Shown here in pieces: positions 6,374 to 51,930 of a DNA stretch of 64,000 nt. Under the pieces are notes generated by a model. It ran no database searches, was not told where the DNA came from, and saw nothing but the letters and a program-made list of their open reading frames with translations. A program made the position numbers and the translations under genes. The DNA is from Candidatus Woesearchaeota archaeon (GTDB taxonomy: Archaea; Nanobdellota; Nanobdellia; Woesearchaeales; JAFGPW01): assembly GCA_016935985.1 (NCBI GenBank), contig JAFGPW010000004.1, positions 152,752 through 216,751 on the forward strand, in the 5' to 3' direction. Every line of letters begins with the position of its first letter. Within the stretch, counting starts at the first letter, position 1.

Positions 6374-8614
6374 ATGCCTGAGATAGAGAGGAAGGAGATC
6401 GAGGATATCCTGAAGAAGTACCAGCGCAAGCTCGACGAGGATCTTGGCGAGGAGGAGGTGACCGCCGAAGTCAGGCCCGGGAGCTCCCGCGAGTACCGCC
6501 AGTTCAAGACCGAGATACTGCCGCCGCACATGACCGCCTATGAGACGCTGTGCAACCTCTCCGAGAGGATAATCAAGATACCCCCCGACAGGAGGAAGGA
6601 GGCGAGGCTCCTCGAGTCAATCGAGACCTGCCATCTCAACATCACGCCCACCGGCGTCACCACCTTCGCGATGGTCCTCCCGGTCCTCGTGCTCGTTCTC
6701 GGGTCCGGCATCTCCTTCCTCGTCTACGAGGAGGTCTTCTTCACCCTGTTCTTCGCGATTATCGCGGTCTCTCTCATCTTCCCGCTCTCGAACCTCCCTC
6801 ACACCCTCGCCGAGCGATGGCGGATGCGCGCCTCGAACGAGATGGTCCTCTCGATATTCTACATCGTGACGTACATGCGCCACACCTCGAACCTCGAGCG
6901 CGCCATCAACTTCGCGGCGGAGCACCTCAACGGCCCGCTCGCGCTCGACCTCAAGAAGGTCGTCTGGAACGTCGAGACCGAGAAGTACGAGTCGATCAAG
7001 GAGTCGCTCGACATGTACCTCGAGAGCTGGCGCAAGTACAACCTTGAGTTCATCGAGGCGTGCCACCTCATCGAGTCCTCGCTCTATGAGGGGTCGGAGG
7101 ACCGGCGCCTGCTGATGCTCGACAAGGCGCTCGCCGTCCTCCTCGAGGAGACGTACGAGAAGATGCTCCACTACGCGCAGAACCTCAAGAGCCCAATCAC
7201 GACGCTCCACATGCTGGGCATCATCCTGCCGGTGCTCGGCCTCGTCATCCTGCCGCTCGTCGTGAGCTTCATGGAGGGCGTCAGGTGGTACCACATCGCG
7301 ATGCTGTACGACGTCGCGCTCCCGGCGATCGTCTACTATATGGGGAAGAGCATCCTCGGGACGCGCCCCACCGGCTACGGCGAGGCGGACATATCGAAGC
7401 ACAGGCGCATGAAGAAGTACCGGGATATCCTCATCACCATCGCCGGCTTCGAGATCAGGCTCTCGCCGCTCTGGTTCGCTGTCATCATCTTCGCCGTGTT
7501 CTTCCTCCTCGGCCTCTCGCCCATCATGCTCAACGCGATGAACTGCAACTTCGACTACGTGGTCGCGTCGGAAGGCTCGAAGACCGTCTTCAAGACCGTC
7601 TTCTCCGACACGCCGCAGTGCGACGGCGTCGTCGAGCCGACGGCGACCTTCTACTTCCTCGGCTACCGCGAGGCCCAGAAGCCGGACGAGGAGTCAGGAG
7701 AGATACGGCCGATCGGCCCGTTCGGGTTCGGCGCCGCGGTCCTCTCGGTCTTCATCCCGGTGGCGCTGGGGATCGCCATTGGCTTCTATTACAAGAAGCG
7801 CTCGCAGAACCTGATCAAGATCAGGAAGGATGCCAAGCAGCTCGAGGACGAGTTCGCCTCAGCCCTCTTCCAGCTGGGCAACCGGCTCGGCGACGGGCTG
7901 CCTGCCGAGATCGCCTTCGACAAGGTGGCGGAGGTCATGGCCGACACCAAGTCCGGCGCGTTCTTCTCGATTGTCTCGGGCAACATCAAGAAGATGGGCG
8001 TCGGGGTCGAGCAGGCGATCTTCGACCCGCAGTTCGGGGCGATGAAGTACTACCCGTCGAACGTCATCGAGTCGAGCATGAAGGTGCTCATCGAGAGCAT
8101 CAAGAAAGGCCCGCAGATCGCGGCGCAGGCGCTCGTGAACGTATCGCAGTACATCAAGGAGATGCACCGCGTGGAGGAGCGGCTCAAGGACCTCCTCTCT
8201 GACATCATCTCGTCGATGAAGTCGCAGATCAGCTTCCTTACCCCAGTGATCGCAGGGATCGTCGTCGGCATCACGGCCATGGTCTCCGGCATCCTCGGCC
8301 AGCTCCAGATCCAGATGGCGCAGATCGCGGCCAAGACCGAAACCGGCGTGGGCTCGATCGTGTCGCTGTTCGGCGACGGGATCCCGACCTACTATTTCCA
8401 GGTCATCGTCGGCATCTATGTCGTCTCGCTCGTCTACATCCTGACCGTCATCACGAACGGCATCGAGAACGGGCAGGACAAGCTCAACGAGCGGTTCCTT
8501 CTCGGCAGGAACATGACCAAGAGCACGATGCTGTACACCGTCGTCTCGACGGTGATCATGCTGCTGTTCAACTTCATCTCCTCGCAGATACTCTCCGCGA
8601 CGCTCGCGCCATGA
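6374..8614 (+). CDS. FlaJ/TadC/PilC-like polytopic membrane platform protein (two T2SS-F-like domains), 746 aa
   Basis: Two repeated cytoplasmic helical domains, each followed by TM helix clusters. It lies immediately downstream of the ATPase, and a purine-rich SD-like stretch precedes the ATG. Confidence 0.75.
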   Translation: MPEIERKEIEDILKKYQRKLDEDLGEEEVTAEVRPGSSREYRQFKTEILPPHMTAYETLCNLSERIIKIPPDRRKEARLLESIETCHLNITPTGVTTFAMVLPVLVLVLGSGISFLVYEEVFFTLFFAIIAVSLIFPLSNLPHTLAERWRMRASNEMVLSIFYIVTYMRHTSNLERAINFAAEHLNGPLALDLKKVVWNVETEKYESIKESLDMYLESWRKYNLEFIEACHLIESSLYEGSEDRRLLMLDKALAVLLEETYEKMLHYAQNLKSPITTLHMLGIILPVLGLVILPLVVSFMEGVRWYHIAMLYDVALPAIVYYMGKSILGTRPTGYGEADISKHRRMKKYRDILITIAGFEIRLSPLWFAVIIFAVFFLLGLSPIMLNAMNCNFDYVVASEGSKTVFKTVFSDTPQCDGVVEPTATFYFLGYREAQKPDEESGEIRPIGPFGFGAAVLSVFIPVALGIAIGFYYKKRSQNLIKIRKDAKQLEDEFASALFQLGNRLGDGLPAEIAFDKVAEVMADTKSGAFFSIVSGNIKKMGVGVEQAIFDPQFGAMKYYPSNVIESSMKVLIESIKKGPQIAAQALVNVSQYIKEMHRVEERLKDLLSDIISSMKSQISFLTPVIAGIVVGITAMVSGILGQLQIQMAQIAAKTETGVGSIVSLFGDGIPTYYFQVIVGIYVVSLVYILTVITNGIENGQDKLNERFLLGRNMTKSTMLYTVVSTVIMLLFNFISSQILSATLAP

Positions 8615-20639: not shown

Positions 20640-20896
20640 TAGGGGAGGAGCCCCCAACAATAGACCGCTCGTATGCTTCTTGGCAGATATAGAATTAAAG
20701 CAGATATTGACCTTTTTTAGACAAAAGAAAGCAAATTTTATCTTATTTATACTTACATTGTAAGTAGAAAAATCAAGCGAAATGGCTCGACAGCATGATG
20801 AAGTACGCGCAAATGGAAAGATTTATATATTTCATACCACCTTAGTATATCAATTCGTATATTGATTGGGTTTACCAATCAAGTATCCGAGAAAAA
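20640..20896. promoter_or_regulatory. AT-rich (~30% GC) divergent promoter region with three inverted repeats (CTTACAttGTAAG; ATCAATtcgtatATTGAT; TTGATTGGgtttaCCAATCAA)
   Basis: Read directly from the sequence. It separates nop5 (minus strand) from the glycoprotein gene (plus strand), and a TATA-like tttatatat lies at ~20820. Confidence 0.4.
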
Positions 20897-21769
20897 ATGA
20901 GAATTATACTGAAGCGACGGGACATCGCAGCCATGCTGCTCGCTCTCACCGCACTCTTCCTGGTCCCCTCAGCCCCTGACGCCCTCGCCGCGGTCACGAA
21001 CATCACCTTCACGGTCCACCTCACGGTCGGCAACTATCCGCCGACAATCGATTGGATTGTCACTGTCCCCGCCCAGGACCCGACCGAAGCTGCCAACACC
21101 ACGTTCTACGTCTGGTACAACGTCTCCGATCCTGACGGCGCCGGAACCATCAACAACAACACCGCCGAGGTCGTGATCAACCGGTCCGGCGTCTCGCTCA
21201 CCGCGATCAGCTGCTCGAACGCCACGATCAACGGCACCATGCAGACAATCAACTGCACCATGGAGATCGAGTATTACCGGAACGCCGGCGGCTGGGACAT
21301 CAACGTCTCTATCAGGGACATCAGCTCGGCGTTCGCGAACGACACATCCAACTCCTTCACGTACAACATGCTCTCCGCGCTCTGGATGAACACGACTGCG
21401 ATTAGCTTCGGGAGCGTCAACATCGGCCAGACGAACGTCGCGCCGAACTCCTCTCTCGTGCTCAACAATACGGGGAACGTCGACTTCACCGAGGTCAACA
21501 TAACGGCGTACGACCTCGTCGGCTTCACGAACCCCAGCTACTCGATCGCAGCCGACAACTTCACCGTCCGCCTGAACGCATCGACCCTCGGCGGCGATGT
21601 TCTCGACAACGTGACGAACACGACGGTCACCGGCGCGACGGTGCCGCACGGCGCGCCGCCGGCATCGAACGAATCGCTCTGGATCTACATCAACCAGGTC
21701 CCCGGCGGCCTGATCTCGCAGGACTACAACACCACAAACTCTCTCGATTGGTGGGTCCTCGTCGGATAA
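20897..21769 (+). CDS. Secreted protein with a Sec signal peptide and about 20 N-x-S/T sequons in 290 aa (predicted heavily N-glycosylated surface protein)
   Basis: The signal peptide is MRIILKRRDIAAMLLALTALFLVPSAPDALAA. The sequon count was made by eye. Confidence 0.6.
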   Translation: MRIILKRRDIAAMLLALTALFLVPSAPDALAAVTNITFTVHLTVGNYPPTIDWIVTVPAQDPTEAANTTFYVWYNVSDPDGAGTINNNTAEVVINRSGVSLTAISCSNATINGTMQTINCTMEIEYYRNAGGWDINVSIRDISSAFANDTSNSFTYNMLSALWMNTTAISFGSVNIGQTNVAPNSSLVLNNTGNVDFTEVNITAYDLVGFTNPSYSIAADNFTVRLNASTLGGDVLDNVTNTTVTGATVPHGAPPASNESLWIYINQVPGGLISQDYNTTNSLDWWVLVG

Positions 21770-26505: not shown

Positions 26506-26618
26506 GGACCTGTAGCCCAGCCTGGATAAGGCGCCGGCCTTCTACGCGAGGATCGGAGCTCTCGGGCTCTCCTTGCAAAGAGAGCCGGAGATCGGGGGTT
26601 CGAATCCCTCCAGGTCCA
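26506..26618 (+). tRNA. tRNA-Arg (UCU) with a ~38-nt intron at the canonical 37/38 position
   Basis: Acceptor GGACCTG/CAGGTCC; anticodon stem CCGGC/GCCGG with loop C-U-UCU-A interrupted by the intron; T-loop TTCGAAT; discriminator A. A TATA box (tttataaa) lies ~30 nt upstream. Confidence 0.7.
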
Positions 26619-26673: not shown

Positions 26674-26799
26674 GCGGGGGTAGCCAAGCGGCTAAGGCGA
26701 TCGGCTGCAGAGCCGGTACCGCGATCGGTACGACGGGTCCTGCGGGACGATGACTGCGCTGATACCGATTATTCGGGGGTTCGAATCCCCCCCCTCGCT
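26674..26799 (+). tRNA. tRNA-Cys (GCA) with a ~53-nt intron at the 37/38 position
   Basis: Acceptor GCGGGGG/CCCTCGC (one G-U pair); anticodon stem ATCGG/CCGAT with loop C-U-GCA-G then the intron; T-loop TTCGAAT; discriminator U, the Cys identity element. An oligo-T tract follows. Confidence 0.65.
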
Positions 26800-26865: not shown

Positions 26866-28083
26866 ATGGACTGGCATCATCACAAGGAACTGGTCATGCT
26901 GCTCTTGTTCCTCATGGCGGCGTTCGTCCTCAGCGCGCTTGTCGTCATCCTCAAGGTGACCCCCGGTTATCTCGGCCATCTGGTCGCGGAAGGCGGCAAC
27001 ATGACGAGCTTGAACATCAGCCAGCGCGAGCAGGCCGCAAGCTGGGAGGGAGTGTATGGGAACATCAGCGTCGGCGGCAGCGCCATGAGCGTCTCGGTCG
27101 GAGGCGGCGCGATCCAGCGGGTCGACATCGTCACCGCTGACAGCGGATACGCGAACGGCTCATTCAATGTCTATGCCTCCAACCAGTCGAGCCTCGACTT
27201 CGCCTGTCTCGAGCCGGCGGCGCCGTCCGACGTGGACCTCCACCTCGGCGTGGGCGCCGGCAGCCTCGGCTCCGGCACCGGCACCTTCACCGCGCAGGCG
27301 CTCTTCATGGTCTATGGCCAGAACGCGAGCCACCTGCTCAACGCGACCCTCACAAACCCGCCATCGAGCGGGTTCTGGGAAGGCATCATGCGCGACAACA
27401 GCACCGGCAACCTCGTGTTCGTCGGGAAAGTGCTGCCCGCAGGCGTCGCCTACAACGGCGAGACCGTCAACTATCAGCTGCTGCTACCGGTGAGCCCCAG
27501 CGGGAACGACACATACCATTTCTTCCTCGACCAATACGGCTGCACCGAGGAGATCGAGATCGAGCTCGCCGACAACCTCATCTCGTTCGTGTGCAACCCT
27601 ACCGACCCGAACATCTCGGTGGTTCTCGCGCCGATCGACGGCGAGTACGAGTCTGCGCACCACTACGACGACGAGGACCCGATCGACCATTGGAAGGTCT
27701 ACAACCCGGCGCTGCCCGGCTGGGTCGTGCAGGACCTCGCGACGCTCAACAGCTCGATGGGATTCTGGCTCAAGATGAACGCCTCTGACAACCTGACCGT
27801 CACCGGCTCCATGACCGGGAATAAGTTCCAGCCTCTCGGACTCGACTACAACATGGTGGGCTATCCGACGACCGTGCCGATGGCGATTAACCTCTCGCTC
27901 GCGAGCATCGAGAACAACTACACATCGATCCACATGTACAACGCATCTGACACTGCGGACCATTGGAAGGTCTACAACCCGGCGCTGCCCGGCTGGGTCG
28001 TGCAGGACCTCACGCGGACGGTGCCGCACCAAGGGTACTGGATACGCATGAACCAGACCGAGGTCTGGGAGATTATGTGGTGA
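26866..28083 (+). CDS. N-terminally membrane-anchored surface protein with two ~50-aa repeats of the form (S.H.YNA.D.ADHWKVYNPALPGWVVQDL...G(F/Y)W(I/L)(R/K)MN)
   Basis: A TATA box (gatttaaata) ~30 nt upstream, a leaderless ATG, an N-terminal hydrophobic segment MLLLFLMAAFVLSALVVIL, and repeats at aa ~265-315 and ~355-405. Confidence 0.6.
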   Translation: MDWHHHKELVMLLLFLMAAFVLSALVVILKVTPGYLGHLVAEGGNMTSLNISQREQAASWEGVYGNISVGGSAMSVSVGGGAIQRVDIVTADSGYANGSFNVYASNQSSLDFACLEPAAPSDVDLHLGVGAGSLGSGTGTFTAQALFMVYGQNASHLLNATLTNPPSSGFWEGIMRDNSTGNLVFVGKVLPAGVAYNGETVNYQLLLPVSPSGNDTYHFFLDQYGCTEEIEIELADNLISFVCNPTDPNISVVLAPIDGEYESAHHYDDEDPIDHWKVYNPALPGWVVQDLATLNSSMGFWLKMNASDNLTVTGSMTGNKFQPLGLDYNMVGYPTTVPMAINLSLASIENNYTSIHMYNASDTADHWKVYNPALPGWVVQDLTRTVPHQGYWIRMNQTEVWEIMW

Positions 28084-28086
28084 GTA

Positions 28087-28898
28087 TGAGAACGGCCCTG
28101 TCACGCATCGGCATCTGCATCCTTCTCATGCTTGCAGCGACCGGGATGACGCAGGCCACTGACACACCAATCCTCTCGGCAGAGCTGTATGGCACCCTAA
28201 CGATCAACGGCGAGGACGCTCCGATCGGCGCTGAGGTCGTGGTCACTGACCCCTCGGGCACGGTCTGCGGCAGGTTCACGGTCGAGACGATCGGCAGGTA
28301 TGGGCTGCTTTCGTGCCATGGCGACATCGGAACGACGCCCGAGGATGAGGGGGCGGTTCCGGGAGAGACGCTGAGCTTCGCCGTCGAGGGAACGGTTGCC
28401 GTCCCGGCAGCGCCGGTCGCGTACGCTGCAGGCGAATTCATCGAGGTCGGCATCGCCGCCGACATCCCTGGCTATTGGGACGTGCCAGCCGTTCCATCGG
28501 ACCGGTCTCCGGAAGAGAAGGAAGACGGCGACAGCGTCGGCAGGGGGGCGCCTTCGGGGAGCGTGCCCTTTCCACGGGAGCGGCAGATCGGCGGCACTGT
28601 TCCAAGCGATGAGAATCGCTCGGATTTTGAGATCCTCCTCGAGAGCGGTGGGGTTGCGACCGAAGAGCCGCGCGCGGTGGAGGGCGAGTCAGGCCTCGAT
28701 TTCTCGATCCTCAAGCTCTTCGGCCAGGACAAGGAAGGCAAGAGCAGGAACCCGTTCAGGGATCCGTTCGCCGGGCTCTGGATCCCGCTCATCCTCAGTT
28801 TCGCAATCCTGGTGATCTATCTGGTCGCACGGATGGTCCGTCTCGAGCGGCGACTCAGGCGGAAAGAGAGGGAATCCGAAGCGCGCACGCTCGAGTAG
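28087..28898 (+). CDS. Secreted, C-terminally membrane-anchored surface protein carrying a shared ~100-aa N-terminal module (paralog of the 30218 and 30736 genes)
   Basis: A Sec signal (cleavage after TQA), the module LYGTLTINGEDAP..GRFTVETIGRYGLLSCHGD..EDEGAVPGE, and a C-terminal TM helix plus R/K-rich tail. Confidence 0.6.
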
Positions 28899-28962
28899 CC
28901 GTCGCATCTCTCCATTGTCGTCTTTTCAGACCGAAAGGTATAAATAGGAGCGAATCCACTTT

Positions 28963-28975
28963 TCTGATTATCAGA
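28963..28975. repeat. 13-bp perfect palindrome TCTGATtATCAGA (operator-like site 1), just downstream of a TATA-like ggtataaatagg at 28938-28949
   Basis: Read directly from the sequence. Confidence 0.6.
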
Positions 28976-29026
28976 TATTAATTTAGAAAGAGTAATAAAA
29001 TTTCGTATAATCATATTTAAAAATAT

Positions 29027-29061
29027 ATTATCAGATATTATCTCTGATTATCAGAATATAT
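29027..29061. promoter_or_regulatory. Operator-like array ATTATCAGATATTAtctcTCTGATtATCAGAATATATT; the second TCTGATtATCAGA palindrome abuts a TATA-like aatatatt upstream of the AbrB-like gene
   Basis: Half-site ATCAGA occurs three times and TCTGAT twice within 28963-29055. The array overlaps the core promoter of the 29108 gene. Confidence 0.5.
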
Positions 29062-29107
29062 TCCTAGGTATGGACCAGGAAAAGAAGCGAAAAAAAGAGG
29101 CGCCCAG

Positions 29108-29398
29108 GTGAAGAGGTATCCCCGTATTGTCCAGAGCGACAGACGCGGCCAGATCGTCATCCCAAAGGACATCAGGGCAGAGCTCGGCATCGAGGAAGGA
29201 TCCGGATTCTGGGTCTACGCGATAGAGGGCGAAGGGATCCTTCTCAGGAAGATCGATGACGAGGAGCTCTCCGAAGACAACCCGGTCGTCAGGAAGCTGA
29301 AGGAGAAATCCGACAAGACATCCCTTTCTTATAAGAAGATCGACGCGACCGTGAAGCGGTACAAGCGGACGAGGAAGGGAAACCTCGAGGTGGTATGA
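29108..29398 (+). CDS. AbrB/MazE/SpoVT-family (swapped-hairpin) DNA-binding transcriptional regulator, 96 aa
   Basis: The N-terminal motif RRGQIVIPKDIRAELGIEEGSGFWVYAIEGEGILLRKI is typical of SpoVT/AbrB domains. The gene has a GTG start and a K/R-rich C-terminal tail. Confidence 0.6.
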   Translation: MKRYPRIVQSDRRGQIVIPKDIRAELGIEEGSGFWVYAIEGEGILLRKIDDEELSEDNPVVRKLKEKSDKTSLSYKKIDATVKRYKRTRKGNLEVV

Positions 29399-30049
29399 GT
29401 GCGGCCTCTCCTGCTCATCACGATCATGCTCCTCATCACCGCCTGCGCCGCCAGCGTCGCTCTCAGCCAGGGCCTTCCGCTCGGCGTATCCCTCTTCATT
29501 ATTGGCGCGAACCAGACCGAATTCGACTTCGATCTCGACTGGAACCTCGCCTCGCTCCAGATCATCCCCAACGACACGAACGTCTCACGCATGCTCACGC
29601 CCATCCTCGGCAAGTACATCTCGGTCCATTACTACAACGCGACCGACATGGCGGACCACTGGAAGGTCTACAACCCGAGCCTGCCAATATGGGTCACCCA
29701 GGACCTCACGAATCTCGATGAGAAGAAGGGATTCTGGATACGGATCAACGAGTCGGTCAACCTGACCGTCAACGGATCGCAGAACTCATACAACGATATC
29801 CCGATACAGCCCGACTGGAACATGGTCGGCTACCCATCCCTCTTCAAGAGGAACGTTACGGTCGCGCTCACATCAATCTGGGGGAATTTCAGCTCAGTCC
29901 ATATGTACAACGCGACCGACATGGCGGACCACTGGAAGGTCTACAACCCGGCGCTGCCCGACTGGGTCGTGCAGGACCTCCTTTGGTTGGTTCCCAAACA
30001 CGGCTACTGGATAAGAGGAAACGACACGGACACATGGAGGGTGGAATAG
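29399..30049 (+). CDS. Secreted protein with two DHWKVYNP(A/S)LPxWVxQDL repeats and multiple N-x-S/T sequons
   Basis: A GTG start gives the signal peptide MRPLLLITIMLLITACAASVALS. Repeats occur at aa ~75-125 and ~160-210. Confidence 0.55.
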   Translation: MRPLLLITIMLLITACAASVALSQGLPLGVSLFIIGANQTEFDFDLDWNLASLQIIPNDTNVSRMLTPILGKYISVHYYNATDMADHWKVYNPSLPIWVTQDLTNLDEKKGFWIRINESVNLTVNGSQNSYNDIPIQPDWNMVGYPSLFKRNVTVALTSIWGNFSSVHMYNATDMADHWKVYNPALPDWVVQDLLWLVPKHGYWIRGNDTDTWRVE

Positions 30050-30217
30050 GTGAGATGATGGGGCGCTCCTGAAACTGCAGGATGAGGGATTCCTCGCGGT
30101 TGCAATCGGCCTCGTCGCTGCAGTGGCGTGCGCTGTGCCCCCAATCCCTAGGGAGATGTACCGGCAAGCCGCCGAGGAAGATGGATATGATGGTGAGAGC
30201 ACATGAGAGATGACCAC

Positions 30218-30739
30218 ATGAGCAAAGCAGTGGCCCTGCTGGCGATCGCGCTCCTCGCGGCTCCTGCAGCGGCCGCGGTGCCGCCGATAGCGATGGAGAT
30301 TTATGGCGGGATCACGATCGACGGCGAGGACGCGATCGAAGGGATCCTCGTAGAGGCGTACGGCGAGGACGGCCGGCTCTGCGGCCGGTTCGTCGTCGAA
30401 GTGCCGGGAAAATACGGCCTGCTCTCCTGCAATGCCGACGATCCCGACACCGAGGAGGACGAGGGAGCGTCGCCGGGCGAGGCGATCGTGTTCAGGATCA
30501 ATCGGCAGGCGGCCGTCGCTGAGCGGCAGGTCCTCTTCGAGGCAGGAGAGTTCGCTGAGGTGAGGCTTGCCGCGTCGCTCCCTGACGGCCAGCAGCCGTT
30601 TATGGAGGTGCCGGCAGACGATGAGGGCGGCGCGCCATGGAAGACCATCTTCGTCGCGATCATCGTCGTCCTCGCCCTCATCGTATGGAACAAGCGGCTC
30701 GAGCTCCGGATAAAGGATCTCACCAGGAAACGCGAATGA
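30218..30739 (+). CDS. Secreted, C-terminally anchored protein carrying the shared N-terminal module (IYGGITIDGEDA..GRFVVEVPGKYGLLSCNAD..EDEGASPGE)
   Basis: Signal peptide MSKAVALLAIALLAAPAAAA; a C-terminal TM helix plus a basic tail; the stop overlaps the next start (ATGA). Confidence 0.6.
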   Translation: MSKAVALLAIALLAAPAAAAVPPIAMEIYGGITIDGEDAIEGILVEAYGEDGRLCGRFVVEVPGKYGLLSCNADDPDTEEDEGASPGEAIVFRINRQAAVAERQVLFEAGEFAEVRLAASLPDGQQPFMEVPADDEGGAPWKTIFVAIIVVLALIVWNKRLELRIKDLTRKRE

Positions 30740-33666
30740 GGAAGAGCAGCTCACAGCGGACCGTGCAGGCGATCTTGGTAGCAGTCGCCCTCATCATGGT
30801 CATGCGTCTCGCCTCGGCGGTGCCGCCGATACCTGCGTCCTTCTCAGGAACGCTCACCATCGACGGCGCGAACGCGCCTCCCGGCACGAACGTATCGGCG
30901 TTCGACCCCGACGGCGTGATGTGCGGCCAGTTCATCTCCACTGTCGTCGGCTTCTACGGCCTGCTCGACTGCGAGGGCGACGACACGGACACCGGCCCTG
31001 ATGAGGGAGCCGAGGACGGCGACACGATAACATTCTACGTCGACGGCGACCTCGCGGACGCCGTCGGGAGCACGACCTGGACCGCAGGAGGGTTCCCGGT
31101 GGCGAACCTGAACGCGCAGAACGACCCGCCGACGATTTCGTCGATATCCGGGCTCTCGGGGACCGTGCCGGCAGGCTCCCTGCAGACCGTCGACTCGGTG
31201 ACGAGCGACCCGAACCCGACCTTCGGGACTAAGGACCAGGTGCGGCTCATCATCTGCACGACGAACTCCGCGTCTGACGGCTCCGGCTGCGACGCCGCGA
31301 CCGTCTGTAGCGGCGCGCTCGCCGCCGACGACCCGAGCTGCTCATTCAACGTCGAAGGCAGCACCGGCTCCTGGACGCGCTACGTCTTCGCCATGGACGA
31401 GCACGACGAGGTCTCGCTCTCATCGCGGCAGCTCACCTATTCGACCGACGGATCGCCGCCCTCGATCACGGGCATCACGCCGACGAACAACTCCTGGCAG
31501 AACGCGACCCCGCTCCCGCTCAACGTCAACACCGACGAGAACGGCTGGTGCAAGTACGACTTCGCCGTGGGGATCGCGTTCGCGGCTAAGGCGAACCTCA
31601 TGACCGGCGGCGGGTCATCGGCCCACGATGGCAACGTCGCGCTCGCGCCGGGGAACAACGATTTCTACATCCAGTGCAACGACACTTTCGGCAACGTCAT
31701 GGCGCTCGCCGACGAGGTCCACCACCGCCTCCGGTACGATGACGCTAACCCCACCTCCGGCGGCGCGACCGTGTGGATCGACGGCGGCGACCCGAACAGC
31801 ACGATCGGGAACGTCTACGTCAACTGGACTGGCTTCACCGACGCGCAGTCGGGCATCATGGGCTACTACTACAACACCGCCAACAACCAAGGAACGATCG
31901 GCGGGACCTACACCGCGAACACCTTCGCGAGCATGGCCCTGCCTGAGGGCGCGGCGCCCGCGGTCTACGTCTGGCCGATTGACATTTCCTATCGCATCGG
32001 AAACGCCGCGTCAGACACCATCATGGTCGACCTTACCCCACCCACCCTCTCCAATTGGGCGGAATCGCCGCCTGACCTCAACTCGAGCTCACCCGAGAAC
32101 TTCACCGTGTCGGTGACCGCGGCAGATGCGGTCTCAGGCCTCAACGGCAGCCCCCAGCTGCGGTACCGCAGGGGGAGCTACGACTCCTCATACACCTCCT
32201 GGCAGACGATGTCAGGCGCCGGCCCCTCTTACAGCCATACCATCCCGCAGCCGACCGGCGGCTGGTTCACGATCATCGACGAGTATGTCTATTACCAGGT
32301 CAGGGTCTGGGACCGCGTCGGTTGGAACCAGACGACCGGCATCCTCTCCGAGCGCGTGAACCGCATGAACTACCCGCCGGTCTTCGACGCGATCGGCAAC
32401 AAGGTCGCCCAGGAGGACGAGCTCATCTGGTTCTATATCCATGCTGCCGACAACGACAACGACACGCTCGCCTTCACGAGCAACCTCTCCGTCCTTTCCA
32501 TCGCCACTGTGAATCGGACCACCGCGAACGTCAGCTGGACGCCCGGCTACGCGTACAACGGCGACAACCATATCTATTTCACCGCGGATGACGGGACCGT
32601 CGCCGTGAACTCCTCGACGGTCAACATCTGGGTGAACGCGACGAACGATGCCCCTGTGCTCGCAACGATCGCTGACCAGACCGTCTACGTGCACGAGGAG
32701 CTGAGCATCCAGGCCATGGCGACCGATGAGGACAACGAGACGATCACCTATCATCAGGATCCCGGCTCGAGGAGCGTCTTCAGAATCGATCCGGCGACAG
32801 GGTGGATCAACTTCACCGCGCTCCTCGGCTATGTCGGACGCCGGAACGTCACCATCTACGCCTCCGACGGGAAGGTCAACGACTCCGAGAACTTCACGCT
32901 CACAATCTACTACTGCGGAGATGACATCTGCAACACGAACGAGAACTGCTCGTCCTGCCCGCAGGACTGCGGCAGCTGCAGCTCCCAGCGCCCTGACCGG
33001 CTCGCCATTGTCATCCAGCCGCGCAACTGCCTGAACCAGACCATGCTCATCAAGGTGTATGACATGACGGTGCGTGCGAACTGCACGACGATGGGGCTGA
33101 TCTATGAGGGCTATGAGGTGTGCGGCAACCTGAGCGATGTCGGGCTCACCATCTCCATCAAGGACGAGGGAACCGGCACCTACAACGAGAGCGCGGAGCT
33201 CTCCACCGACGATCTCGGCGAGGCGACATTCACGCCGATGATCCCCGGCCACTATCGGATCGTCGCGAAGAAGTCGGACTATCCCGACACCCTGATGCAC
33301 TTCGAGGCCGACTACTGCTACGCCAACGAGACGCTCAACGAGACGACGGCGCCGGCGGCCGTGAACCAGACCGGCGAGCCCACGACGGAGCCCGCCACGA
33401 AGCCGCCGGAGACCGAGGGGCCGGAGGAGGTTCTCCCCAAAGAGGAGACGAGCCTCTTCCTCTTCATCCTGTACTATGTCATCATCCCGATACTCCTCCT
33501 CTCGCTCTTCACCGCGAGCGCCTGGTACTACCAGAAGGAGAAGGACAACAGCATCGCGATCCTGAAGGCTCGGATATCGGTGAAGCGCCAGTACCTCGTG
33601 CTCGCGAAGTACGCCGAGTACTACTGGCACCTGCTCCTCGAGAGGATCGGGCTCGGCAAGAAATGA
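30736..33666 (+). CDS. Large (976 aa) secreted surface protein: shared N-terminal module, a long beta-rich N-glycosylation-rich region, a Cys-rich segment (YYCGDDICNTNENCSSCPQDCGSCSS), a Thr/Pro-rich stalk, and a C-terminal TM anchor
   Basis: Signal peptide cleavage after ASA; the shared module FSGTLTIDGANAP..GQFISTVVGFYGLLDCEGD..PDEGAEDGD; C-terminal LFLFILYYVIIPILLLSLFTASAWYY. Confidence 0.65.
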   Translation: MRKSSSQRTVQAILVAVALIMVMRLASAVPPIPASFSGTLTIDGANAPPGTNVSAFDPDGVMCGQFISTVVGFYGLLDCEGDDTDTGPDEGAEDGDTITFYVDGDLADAVGSTTWTAGGFPVANLNAQNDPPTISSISGLSGTVPAGSLQTVDSVTSDPNPTFGTKDQVRLIICTTNSASDGSGCDAATVCSGALAADDPSCSFNVEGSTGSWTRYVFAMDEHDEVSLSSRQLTYSTDGSPPSITGITPTNNSWQNATPLPLNVNTDENGWCKYDFAVGIAFAAKANLMTGGGSSAHDGNVALAPGNNDFYIQCNDTFGNVMALADEVHHRLRYDDANPTSGGATVWIDGGDPNSTIGNVYVNWTGFTDAQSGIMGYYYNTANNQGTIGGTYTANTFASMALPEGAAPAVYVWPIDISYRIGNAASDTIMVDLTPPTLSNWAESPPDLNSSSPENFTVSVTAADAVSGLNGSPQLRYRRGSYDSSYTSWQTMSGAGPSYSHTIPQPTGGWFTIIDEYVYYQVRVWDRVGWNQTTGILSERVNRMNYPPVFDAIGNKVAQEDELIWFYIHAADNDNDTLAFTSNLSVLSIATVNRTTANVSWTPGYAYNGDNHIYFTADDGTVAVNSSTVNIWVNATNDAPVLATIADQTVYVHEELSIQAMATDEDNETITYHQDPGSRSVFRIDPATGWINFTALLGYVGRRNVTIYASDGKVNDSENFTLTIYYCGDDICNTNENCSSCPQDCGSCSSQRPDRLAIVIQPRNCLNQTMLIKVYDMTVRANCTTMGLIYEGYEVCGNLSDVGLTISIKDEGTGTYNESAELSTDDLGEATFTPMIPGHYRIVAKKSDYPDTLMHFEADYCYANETLNETTAPAAVNQTGEPTTEPATKPPETEGPEEVLPKEETSLFLFILYYVIIPILLLSLFTASAWYYQKEKDNSIAILKARISVKRQYLVLAKYAEYYWHLLLERIGLGKK

Positions 33667-51303: not shown

Positions 51304-51786
51304 TCACATCCTCTCGATTTTCGCTTGCATCTCCTTCATGATGGCATCGAACCTCATCAGCTGCGTGTAGTAGTCGGTGATGATCTGGAGCTTCTTGCGC
51401 TCGATATCGGTGAGCTTCGCCTTTCTCGCGCTCTCGATGATGGGGGGGATGGTCCGCTTCGCCGGCTCGATGAAATGGGCAGTGAAGGCGTCCATCTTGC
51501 TGCGCAGGAGGGTAGGCAAATCGCTCTCTATATGATAGTAGACCTTCTTCGATCCCGGCCTCTTGGTCCGCTGGACCTGGCCGATGCTCTCGAAGAGCTT
51601 GAGCTTGCTCGAGACCGAGGCGAGAGAGTAGCCGGTCCGCTCCGCGAGCTCGTGTATCGATATCTCCCCCGGTTCCAGGAACAGTACGCCGACGAGCTTC
51701 GCGCCGAGCATATCCATGCCGAAACTCCTGAAAACCTGGATGATGAAATCCTGGAACTCCTTCTCGAATGCCGCCATTTTCACCAT
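51304..51786 (-). CDS. Winged-helix transcriptional regulator (MarR/TrmB-like) heading the ABC operon
   Basis: An HTH region (ISIHELAERTGYSLASVSSKLKLFESIGQV) followed by a wing (RTKRPGSKKVYY). Confidence 0.55.
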   Translation of the reverse strand: MVKMAAFEKEFQDFIIQVFRSFGMDMLGAKLVGVLFLEPGEISIHELAERTGYSLASVSSKLKLFESIGQVQRTKRPGSKKVYYHIESDLPTLLRSKMDAFTAHFIEPAKRTIPPIIESARKAKLTDIERKKLQIITDYYTQLMRFDAIMKEMQAKIERM

Positions 51787-51930
51787 TTATCGAATTTTCA
51801 GTATAATCTGGATATGATGATTATTGAGGTATATAAAGGTTATGAAAGGACATACAGTTTTCAGTATTGAAAACAATCCATGCCGCAGCCACCGTAAAGA
51901 ATAAATAGTGCAGAGCCGTTCGCGGGCAGA

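Follow-up and report, generated by a model that had tools for sequence, protein, structure and literature searches.

Bacillus subtilis AbrB, which has the paralogues Abh and SpoVT, is a tetramer that binds DNA cooperatively, represses its own promoter, and recognizes a site described by a loose bipartite TGGNA-type pattern. In archaea, repressors classically sit between the TATA box and the transcription start. To our knowledge, almost nothing is known of gene regulation in Woesearchaeota and other DPANN archaea, because these organisms are uncultivated. Here, we describe an array of palindromic sites upstream of a gene for a 96-residue AbrB-like protein (29108-29398) in a 64-kb stretch of the Candidatus Woesearchaeota contig JAFGPW010000004.1, hereafter called the window. 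The array very probably is a conserved, protein-binding cis-regulatory element, and we hold with moderate confidence that it is a cooperative operator by which the AbrB-like protein keeps its own operon of surface-protein genes repressed. Two other groups of AbrB-fold regulators provide points of comparison. MraZ recognizes four GTG(T/G) boxes and must be oligomeric once the spacers between them are lengthened (PMC12957436), and small AbrB-fold antitoxins of the MazE/VapB type are reported to be autorepressors that bind palindromic operators ahead of the antitoxin gene (PMC4333400, PMC5389673).

The 13-bp palindrome TCTGATTATCAGA, which reads TCTGA-TTA-TCAGA, occurs exactly twice in the window, at 28963-28975 (O1) and 29043-29055 (O2). 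We treat both copies as candidate operator sites; the distal promoter described below is predicted to start transcription within O1. A search for TCTGATNATCAGA with up to one mismatch returned the same two matches only, so that a regulon search within these 64 kb yielded no further site. When the window was dinucleotide-shuffled 100 times, no shuffle gave two matches to TCTGATNATCAGA (mean, 0.14). Because AT-rich DNA yields palindromes readily, we also shuffled the AT-rich 121 bp under their local composition. One perfect 6+6 palindrome appeared in 45% of these shuffles, and a single palindrome therefore has little meaning; the same palindrome appeared twice in 7 of 5000 shuffles. Both palindromes had been reported in a first-pass annotation of this DNA, and our analysis confirms them as the sole matches. 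The palindrome is rare in the DNA scanned: besides the two matches in 64 kb, only 14 (up to one mismatch) were found in the 490 kb of control DNA described below.

The window contains further elements in register with the palindromes. O1 and O2 are 80 bp (4 x 20) apart. The 14-mer ATTATCAGATATTA is duplicated at 28967-28980 and 29027-29040, and a third copy, at 79%, occupies 29047-29060. The unit at 29027-29040 holds the half-site TCAGA (29031-29035), 60 bp past the right arm of O1 and 20 bp before the right arm of O2, and the third half-site that the first-pass annotation had placed in a duplicated unit is thus present. The TCAGA right arms of the window, at 28971, 29031, and 29051, are therefore spaced by 60 and 20 bp. 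A degenerate half-site, TCATA (29011-29015), differs from TCAGA by one mismatch and lies exactly 40 bp past the O1 right arm; it fits the 20-bp register and is weak alone. TCAGA is scarcer than expected in the window (18 observed versus ~44 expected), and 29031/29051 is its sole pair 19-21 bp apart in the 64 kb. Both palindromes and the third in-phase TCAGA all fall within the AT-richest 100 bp of the window (28960-29059), where guanine-plus-cytosine (GC) content drops to 17%, the lowest of any 100 bp, from a window mean of 62%. The genes, promoter elements, and half-sites described for this operon are on the forward (+) strand, and the palindromes carry no strand.

The core of this site is tied to the orthologous gene in every locus examined. 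We collected 17 independent orthologous loci by protein similarity (GC content, 32-62%; protein identity, 47-66%) and refer to individual loci by L numbers. In all 17, TCTGA-N3-TCAGA (up to one mismatch) lies within ~150 bp upstream of the AbrB-like gene or of the first gene of its operon, and 14 of the 17 hold two to five copies of the 13-mer. In L005, another gene precedes the AbrB-like gene with a 1-nt gap, and the 13-mer is found upstream of that first gene. Position frequencies reveal a conserved unit of 5-bp arms and a 3-bp spacer of A or T (W) only, TCTGA-WWW-TCAGA, followed by ~7 A/T-rich bases. This cross-locus comparison thus reduces the conserved core to the 5-bp arms and the A/T-only spacer. 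The 6-bp-arm palindrome proposed in the first-pass annotation is present in the window, but its sixth arm base is not conserved elsewhere and, judging from the sites compared, is specific to this locus. The same scan applied to 490 kb around 66 distant AbrB-family genes gave one exact and 13 one-mismatch matches. The exact match does not adjoin its AbrB gene, and a one-mismatch match 62 nt upstream of the AbrB gene of an Oscillospiraceae metagenome-assembled genome (MAG; L066) is probably due to chance.

A search that started from DNA led to the same gene. We scanned a metagenome collection with a protein-blind pattern of two W-spacer palindromes 59-81 bp apart and obtained 91 loci, in 16 of which an AbrB-like orthologue (in L156, a paralogue) lies directly downstream in the correct orientation. 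The site spacings in those 16 loci were 60 bp (7 pairs), 80 bp (6), 61 bp (2), 59 bp (1), and 64 bp (1). The remaining loci are mostly coding sequences or satellite and tandem repeats with spacings of 63, 66, or 69 bp, and a scan of viral contigs with a looser pattern gave 13 background matches, none with an AbrB gene and with no preference for multiples of 20 bp. Since L131 duplicates L170 and L134 closely resembles L019, the total comes to ~30 distinct loci, over which the pairing of array and gene is kept at GC contents from 27 to 62%. An operator in the regulator's own promoter is thus conserved together with the gene in 17 of 17 protein-first and 16 DNA-first loci. The autoregulatory operator suggested by the first-pass annotation gains support from this linkage, whereas the AbrB-like binder and the repression itself are what we infer from linkage and position. 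Our literature search returned no paper that connects Woesearchaeota or DPANN archaea with an AbrB regulator or with the motif, and nothing relevant on regulators of Woesearchaeota or on AbrB and surface proteins in DPANN archaea; its coverage was incomplete, which makes it weak evidence of novelty.

The sites are also strictly phased. Start-to-start spacings between copies are 19-21, 40/41, 60/61, 80, 100, and 120 bp, and six DNA-first loci as well as L003 share the 80-bp spacing of O1 and O2. Of the 76 TCAGA-TCAGA distances measured in the protein-first set, 47 equal a multiple of 20 bp, and 15 more exceed one by 1 bp. When 32 loci are taken together, 77% of TCAGA pair distances (104/135) fall within 1 bp of a multiple of 20, versus 15% expected. 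Periods of 10 and 20 alone stood out when periods from 8 to 30 were compared, and TCAGA plus TCTGA were counted 169 times versus 8.8 ± 3.1 in shuffles. The regularity does not depend on complete palindromes: TCAGA is found at positions -140, -120, -100, -80, -40, and -20 in L020, and the half-site array of L002 is purely direct. Because 20 bp corresponds to about two helical turns, all sites would lie on one face of the duplex. The 20-bp phasing, the conserved 5-bp arms, and the link to surface proteins had been overlooked in the first-pass annotation.

The position of the array relative to the promoter is conserved as well. The predicted distal promoter of the window consists of the BRE-like (transcription factor B recognition element) sequence ccgaaagg (28931-28938) and the TATA box tataaata (28939-28946), from which we also predict the transcription start. 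Of the 27 scorable loci, 26 have a BRE/TATA of the type (c/a)gaaaca-TTTAWATA ahead of the first site. The gap between the end of the TATA box and the first 13-mer falls into two classes (5-10 or 14-19 nt), each of which places the start of one pentamer arm ~15-17 nt past the TATA box. In the window the gap is 16 nt, in agreement with the ~15 nt noted in the first-pass annotation. Given the usual archaeal distance from TATA box to start, the first site would cover the initiation region. Across loci, the last site often ends 0-11 nt ahead of the start codon; in the high-GC lineage of the window it ends 52 nt ahead, which leaves room for a Shine-Dalgarno sequence, and a Shine-Dalgarno-like AAGAGG is located at 29095-29100, 7 nt ahead of the GTG start. 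Between the distal promoter and the gene, the phased sites alone are conserved.

Two candidates for a proximal TATA box are found in the window. The AT-only palindrome ATATTTAAAAATAT (29013-29026) lies 17-27 nt upstream of O2 and might serve in this role; AT-only palindromes of its size are common by chance in this composition (45% of shuffles). The second candidate, aatatatt (29055-29062), had been favored in the first-pass annotation on the basis of sequence and does abut O2, with which it shares its first base. In most orthologues, a TATA-like stretch lies upstream of the last palindrome rather than downstream of it. A palindrome touching a TATA box does occur in the paralogue locus L156. 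The window also contains a 13-codon upstream open reading frame, MDQEKKRKKEAPR (29070-29111), which overlaps the AbrB-like gene in the sequence GTGA, its TGA stop sharing bases with the GTG start. Short upstream open reading frames between array and gene are also present in L012, L147, and L151, and in L147 a duplicated 51-nt unit copies the 5' end of the gene.

The 96-aa product is identical to MBN2566992.1 of the National Center for Biotechnology Information (NCBI), from a Candidatus Woesearchaeota MAG, and an exact-protein lookup returned only a 1.7-kb Logan contig identical to the window. It is predicted to comprise an N-terminal looped-hinge-helix DNA-binding domain and a C-terminal helical domain. 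PF04014 (MazE_antitoxin) matches with 36 bits (cut-off, 24.7) and TIGR01439 with 45.7 bits (cut-off, 28.3), and a single AbrB-like domain covers residues 7-52. The family profile matches the N-domains of SpoVT and AbrB (E 2e-5 to 1e-4), and its positions 6-50 align residue for residue with positions 6-49 of AbrB. An AlphaFold2 monomer model (mean predicted local distance difference test score, 75.8) shows an N-terminal beta domain and C-terminal helices at 59-85. Its top Foldseek matches are AbrB, both as the full-length protein and as the N-domain (9a4b, 1z0r, 1yfb), and SpoVT (2w1t), with probabilities of 0.89-0.99 and root-mean-square deviations of 2.7-3.6 Å over the N-domain. By sequence and by modeled fold, the protein is thus assigned to the AbrB/SpoVT family.

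Its homologues form 67 clusters of 47-66% identity, nearly all of them 95-98 aa long, and the named ones are all from Woesearchaeota. In an alignment of 60 homologues every start reads MK(K/R)(Y/F)PK, and this shared N-terminus confirms the GTG start. Q9, D11, R13, G14, Q15, K20, and R23 are invariant in the N-domain, which would be in keeping with an invariant DNA site. D11 and R23 are accompanied by an invariant Q, not R, at position 15, and R13 and K20 are invariant in this family alone. DxxxR is cited as a DNA-contact motif (PMC12957436). The 68-aa paralogue of L156 keeps the N-domain and the palindrome, and its C-terminus and its site spacing (32 bp) both differ. As a single case, it fits a split of roles in which the N-domain would read the site and the C-terminal domain would join dimers.

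These features place the protein near several known regulators without making it one of them. B. subtilis AbrB belongs to the same fold family and has the same layout of N-domain and C-terminal region and the same length of 96 aa (9a4b_A). In contrast to the loose AbrB pattern, the site described here is a sharp 13-bp palindrome in a 20-bp register; R13, Q15, and K20 are invariant where AbrB has L13, R15, and I20; and the promoter is an archaeal BRE/TATA that serves a surface-protein operon. MraZ of the bacterial dcw cluster is a still closer parallel than AbrB autorepression, as it combines the AbrB fold with a position as first gene of its operon and binds regularly spaced boxes in its own promoter, in a register set by oligomerization. 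However, MraZ has two AbrB-like halves per chain, forms 8-12-mer rings, and binds direct repeats in the dcw context, whereas the archaeal protein has a single domain that needs dimerization and is associated with palindromes at 20-bp intervals and with surface proteins. The single domain and the palindromic sites show that it is not a MraZ. With the MazE/VapB-type antitoxins it shares small size, the AbrB fold, palindromic upstream sites, and PF04014 as the best Pfam match; unlike them, it has no toxin partner, and large secreted proteins are encoded downstream. Since no cognate toxin gene (MazF, PIN, Doc, or the like) adjoins the AbrB-like gene among the downstream genes examined, it is not an antitoxin.

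The array also resembles the operators of archaeal repressors. As with MDR1, LrpA, Phr, and TrmB, the first site is located just past the TATA box and over the predicted start, a position that implies a block of RNA polymerase recruitment. Those repressors are helix-turn-helix (HTH), winged HTH, or Lrp proteins with one or two sites, whereas here an AbrB fold is paired with a phased array that runs to the start codon. Among the fold matches are also Sso7c4 (5itj/5itm), C68 of pSSVx (3o27), and C56 of pSSVi (7xi6), which have ~50-60 residues and do not have the C-terminal domain present here; we know of no palindromic operator array defined for any of them. The predicted mechanism, a regulator paired with its operator, is a familiar one, and the 20-bp architecture is unusually regular and occurs in a lineage without characterized regulation.

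We propose the following mechanism, which starts from what is directly seen, namely the sites, their conservation, phasing, and position relative to the TATA box, their linkage to one gene family, and the AbrB fold. Region 28931-29107 would be the promoter-operator region of an operon that comprises the gene of the 96-aa regulator and the genes of secreted surface proteins. The array would begin at the predicted transcription start of the BRE/TATA promoter and extend toward the start codon. Each symmetric N-domain dimer would read one palindrome, and the C-terminal helical domain would join dimers, by analogy with tetrameric B. subtilis AbrB. Because dimers would be joined in this way, neighbors 20 bp apart, and O1 and O2 at 80 bp, would be filled cooperatively. 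A filled array would stop either the recruitment of RNA polymerase or its escape from the promoter, and the outcome would be negative autoregulation together with co-regulation of the surface-protein genes. A bolder version, which we offer tentatively and consider rather doubtful, is that the array supports a higher-order nucleoprotein assembly, either a same-face filament or a distal-proximal loop, acting as a lineage-wide, switch-like master control of the giant surface proteins by which Woesearchaeota (DPANN) cells would contact hosts or substrates, with the C-terminal domain setting the 20-bp register and a signal releasing the array. If true, a dedicated on/off circuit for attachment would be conserved across a whole uncultivated order.

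Several points weigh against repression by the AbrB-like protein. The binder, its stoichiometry, the sign of regulation, and the positions of the transcription starts are all inferred. In B. subtilis AbrB, R8, R15, R23, and R24 contact DNA, and these arginines are conserved only in part here (R15 is Q, and positions 8 and 24 vary). The E-values of the Foldseek matches are weak (0.06-0.07), their probabilities notwithstanding. The array of the window is sparse, consisting of O1, O2, and two half-sites, one of them degenerate, and the array of L183 has no adjacent AbrB gene. The scan of the organism's own genome covered 64 kb, which leaves room for a larger regulon or for another trans-acting factor. 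In many orthologues, the array fills the leader as far as the start codon, which would also fit a role after initiation or at the RNA level.

Some of these points lead directly to alternative explanations. A different factor, encoded elsewhere, might bind the array, in which case the AbrB-like gene would merely be the first gene it regulates. Binding by the AbrB-like protein is itself a prediction, L183 offers an array-like pair with no adjacent AbrB gene, and a 13-bp palindrome with arms of 5 bp is a more usual site for HTH or ribbon-helix-helix dimers than for B. subtilis AbrB with its loose consensus. Nevertheless, we judge this explanation unlikely, since the linkage of array and gene persists in ~30 loci despite varying neighbors. 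Each locus has other genes on the upstream side (RadA, AlaE, a trypsin-like protease, surface proteins), which leaves the AbrB-like gene as the sole conserved DNA-binding gene beside the array. The palindrome is also present next to a truncated paralogue with only the N-domain in common, and autoregulation is the norm for AbrB, MazE, and MraZ. If the AbrB-like protein is the binder, it might activate the operon or act as a dual switch, for example by recruiting TBP/TFB to a weak proximal promoter beside the last site. Archaeal activators use the position directly upstream of the TATA box, and this is where the last palindrome of the window and that of L156 lie, each touching a TATA-like element. 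In most loci, however, the first site is located between a strong conserved TATA box and the predicted transcription start, and the array covers the leader, as is classic for an archaeal repressor; activation is, in our estimate, quite unlikely.

The transcribed leader raises the question of a role in RNA. If the distal promoter alone is in use, the entire array is transcribed, and in several orthologues only 0-7 nt separate the last palindrome from the start codon, as would suit hairpins that govern stability, translation, or access of an RNA-binding protein. The pattern of substitutions argues strongly against this: in 88 palindrome copies with up to two mismatches, none of 46 deviating arm positions is compensatory, 2 are pairable as G-U, and 44 are broken. 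Because broken pairs go uncompensated, the palindrome is a protein site rather than an RNA hairpin. In addition, many array positions are bare half-sites that are unable to pair, the strict 20-bp phasing is a property of the double helix, the folding of the leader is ordinary relative to shuffles (z = -1.23), and no Rfam match for the leader was found at E <= 1. We therefore discarded hairpins and a small RNA, and an RNA-level reading is very improbable. Much the same holds for a separate small transcript driven by the TATA box at 28939-28946, which the first-pass annotation had envisaged as the product of a second promoter. A good BRE/TATA does lie 160 nt upstream of the gene, with further TATA-like stretches nearer to it, but the distal element is the only recognizable strong promoter and, given its conservation in 26 of 27 loci, is that of the operon. 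No oligo-T run (four or more T) that could act as a terminator occurs between it and the gene, and this interval is unconserved save for the phased sites; a separate transcript thus has very little probability. A toxin-antitoxin operator of the MazE type, a chance feature of AT-rich DNA, or the iterons or centromere of a mobile element could be suspected from the Pfam name MazE_antitoxin and from the repeat arrays that precede small DNA-binding genes in modules for partition and replication. The genes that follow here code for signal-peptide surface proteins and not for toxins, ATPases, or Rep proteins, on which ground we rejected the toxin-antitoxin reading, and chance was rejected for the palindrome pair by its rarity under local composition (7/5000) and by its conservation across ~30 loci. 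We consider this group of explanations extremely improbable.

Our analysis now pairs a concrete cis-element, TCTGA-N3-TCAGA in a 20-bp register from TATA box to start codon, with a 96-aa candidate regulator. The prediction can be approached with synthetic DNA and a small recombinant protein, without cultivation, and the motif is usable for charting the regulon in complete genomes. If the prediction is true, an AbrB-fold protein with a crisp palindromic operator would give insight into the sequence specificity of the fold. The finding would gain in importance should the array turn out to act as a cooperative switch for surface proteins involved in host contact, a function that large DPANN surface proteins are thought to have.

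The first gene downstream of the AbrB-like gene (29399-30049) encodes a 216-aa signal-peptide protein and starts on the base after the AbrB stop codon. Two further surface-protein genes follow at 30203-33666 and encode proteins of 178 aa and ~977-1009 aa. The larger protein carries Ig/cadherin-like domains and a C-terminal transmembrane anchor, and its gene likely starts at 30736, in an ATGA overlap with the second gene. It is homologous to the product of the third downstream gene in L005, L011, L012, and L018 (E 1e-45 to 1e-81). Signal-peptide surface-protein genes follow the AbrB-like gene in the orthologous loci, usually with overlapping stop and start codons. Two arrangements are found: a three-gene set like that of the window in the same four loci, or one giant protein of >650 to >2700 aa. 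These surface proteins have signal peptides and C-terminal anchors, and their other domains include PKD (L003) and a NosD beta-helix (L020). In L009 (3237-4628) and L010 (4428-5819), a gene with Schlafen/AlbA_2 and HATPase_c_4 domains lies between the AbrB-like gene and the surface-protein gene, and its product is a putative DNA-binding regulator.

In the window, the AbrB-like gene lies within a cluster of paralogous surface-protein genes (26866-28898 and 29399-33666). The region 26866-28083 resembles 29399-30049 with 53% identity and a repeated DHWKVYNPxLPxWV motif, and the N-terminal regions encoded at 27963-28898, 30203-30739, and 30637-33666 are mutually related. On its upstream side, the cluster adjoins two tRNA genes with long introns (26506-26618 and 26674-26799), which were overlooked by ARAGORN and detected by Rfam. 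These two intron-containing tRNAs and the identity to MBN2566992.1 indicate that the window is archaeal; hits from a scan for sigma-70 promoters and intrinsic terminators were disregarded, as bacterial models do not apply to an archaeon.

Isolated or unusual copies of the motif were also observed in other loci. Lone extra sites were found at L014:1062 (inside an open reading frame), L017:213, L017:6610, and L020:2327. The site at L017 6610-6622 is an exact palindrome directly upstream of a TATA-like ctttatata. Just past it, at 6625-6800, ~150 nt of this AT-rich genome are GC-rich; this stretch has no Rfam match at the gathering threshold and may be an unannotated structured RNA. In L167 (1-150), on a 1.1-kb contig without an AbrB gene, seven tandem 20-bp units of TCTGAAA(T/C)TCAGA plus a 7-nt spacer have the same palindrome and period and look like a satellite repeat. 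L183 (652-724) contains a TCTGAAAATCAGA pair 60 bp apart and an in-phase half-site. The 252-aa product of the next open reading frame, at 803-1561, shares 41% identity with that of the gene after the AbrB-like gene in L017 and reads as methyltransferase-like from its sequence; L183 could be a target regulated in trans or a locus that lost its regulator. In L156 (1-350), the 68-aa paralogue (N-domain 49% identical) is preceded by the same palindrome in 32-bp repeat units and is followed by a 1149-aa open reading frame, and the last palindrome copy abuts a BRE/TATA positioned for a leaderless mRNA.

Small repeats are also present in the next AT-richest intergenic stretches of the window, 20648-20927 and 51737-51914, whose minimum GC contents are 24% and 27%, respectively. 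They comprise two copies of GCAGATATAGA 17 bp apart and two copies of TTTTCAGTAT 63 bp apart, and a palindrome with 12-nt arms is located at 20746-20770. None of these repeats is related to the TCTGA/TCAGA motif; they may represent other operators.

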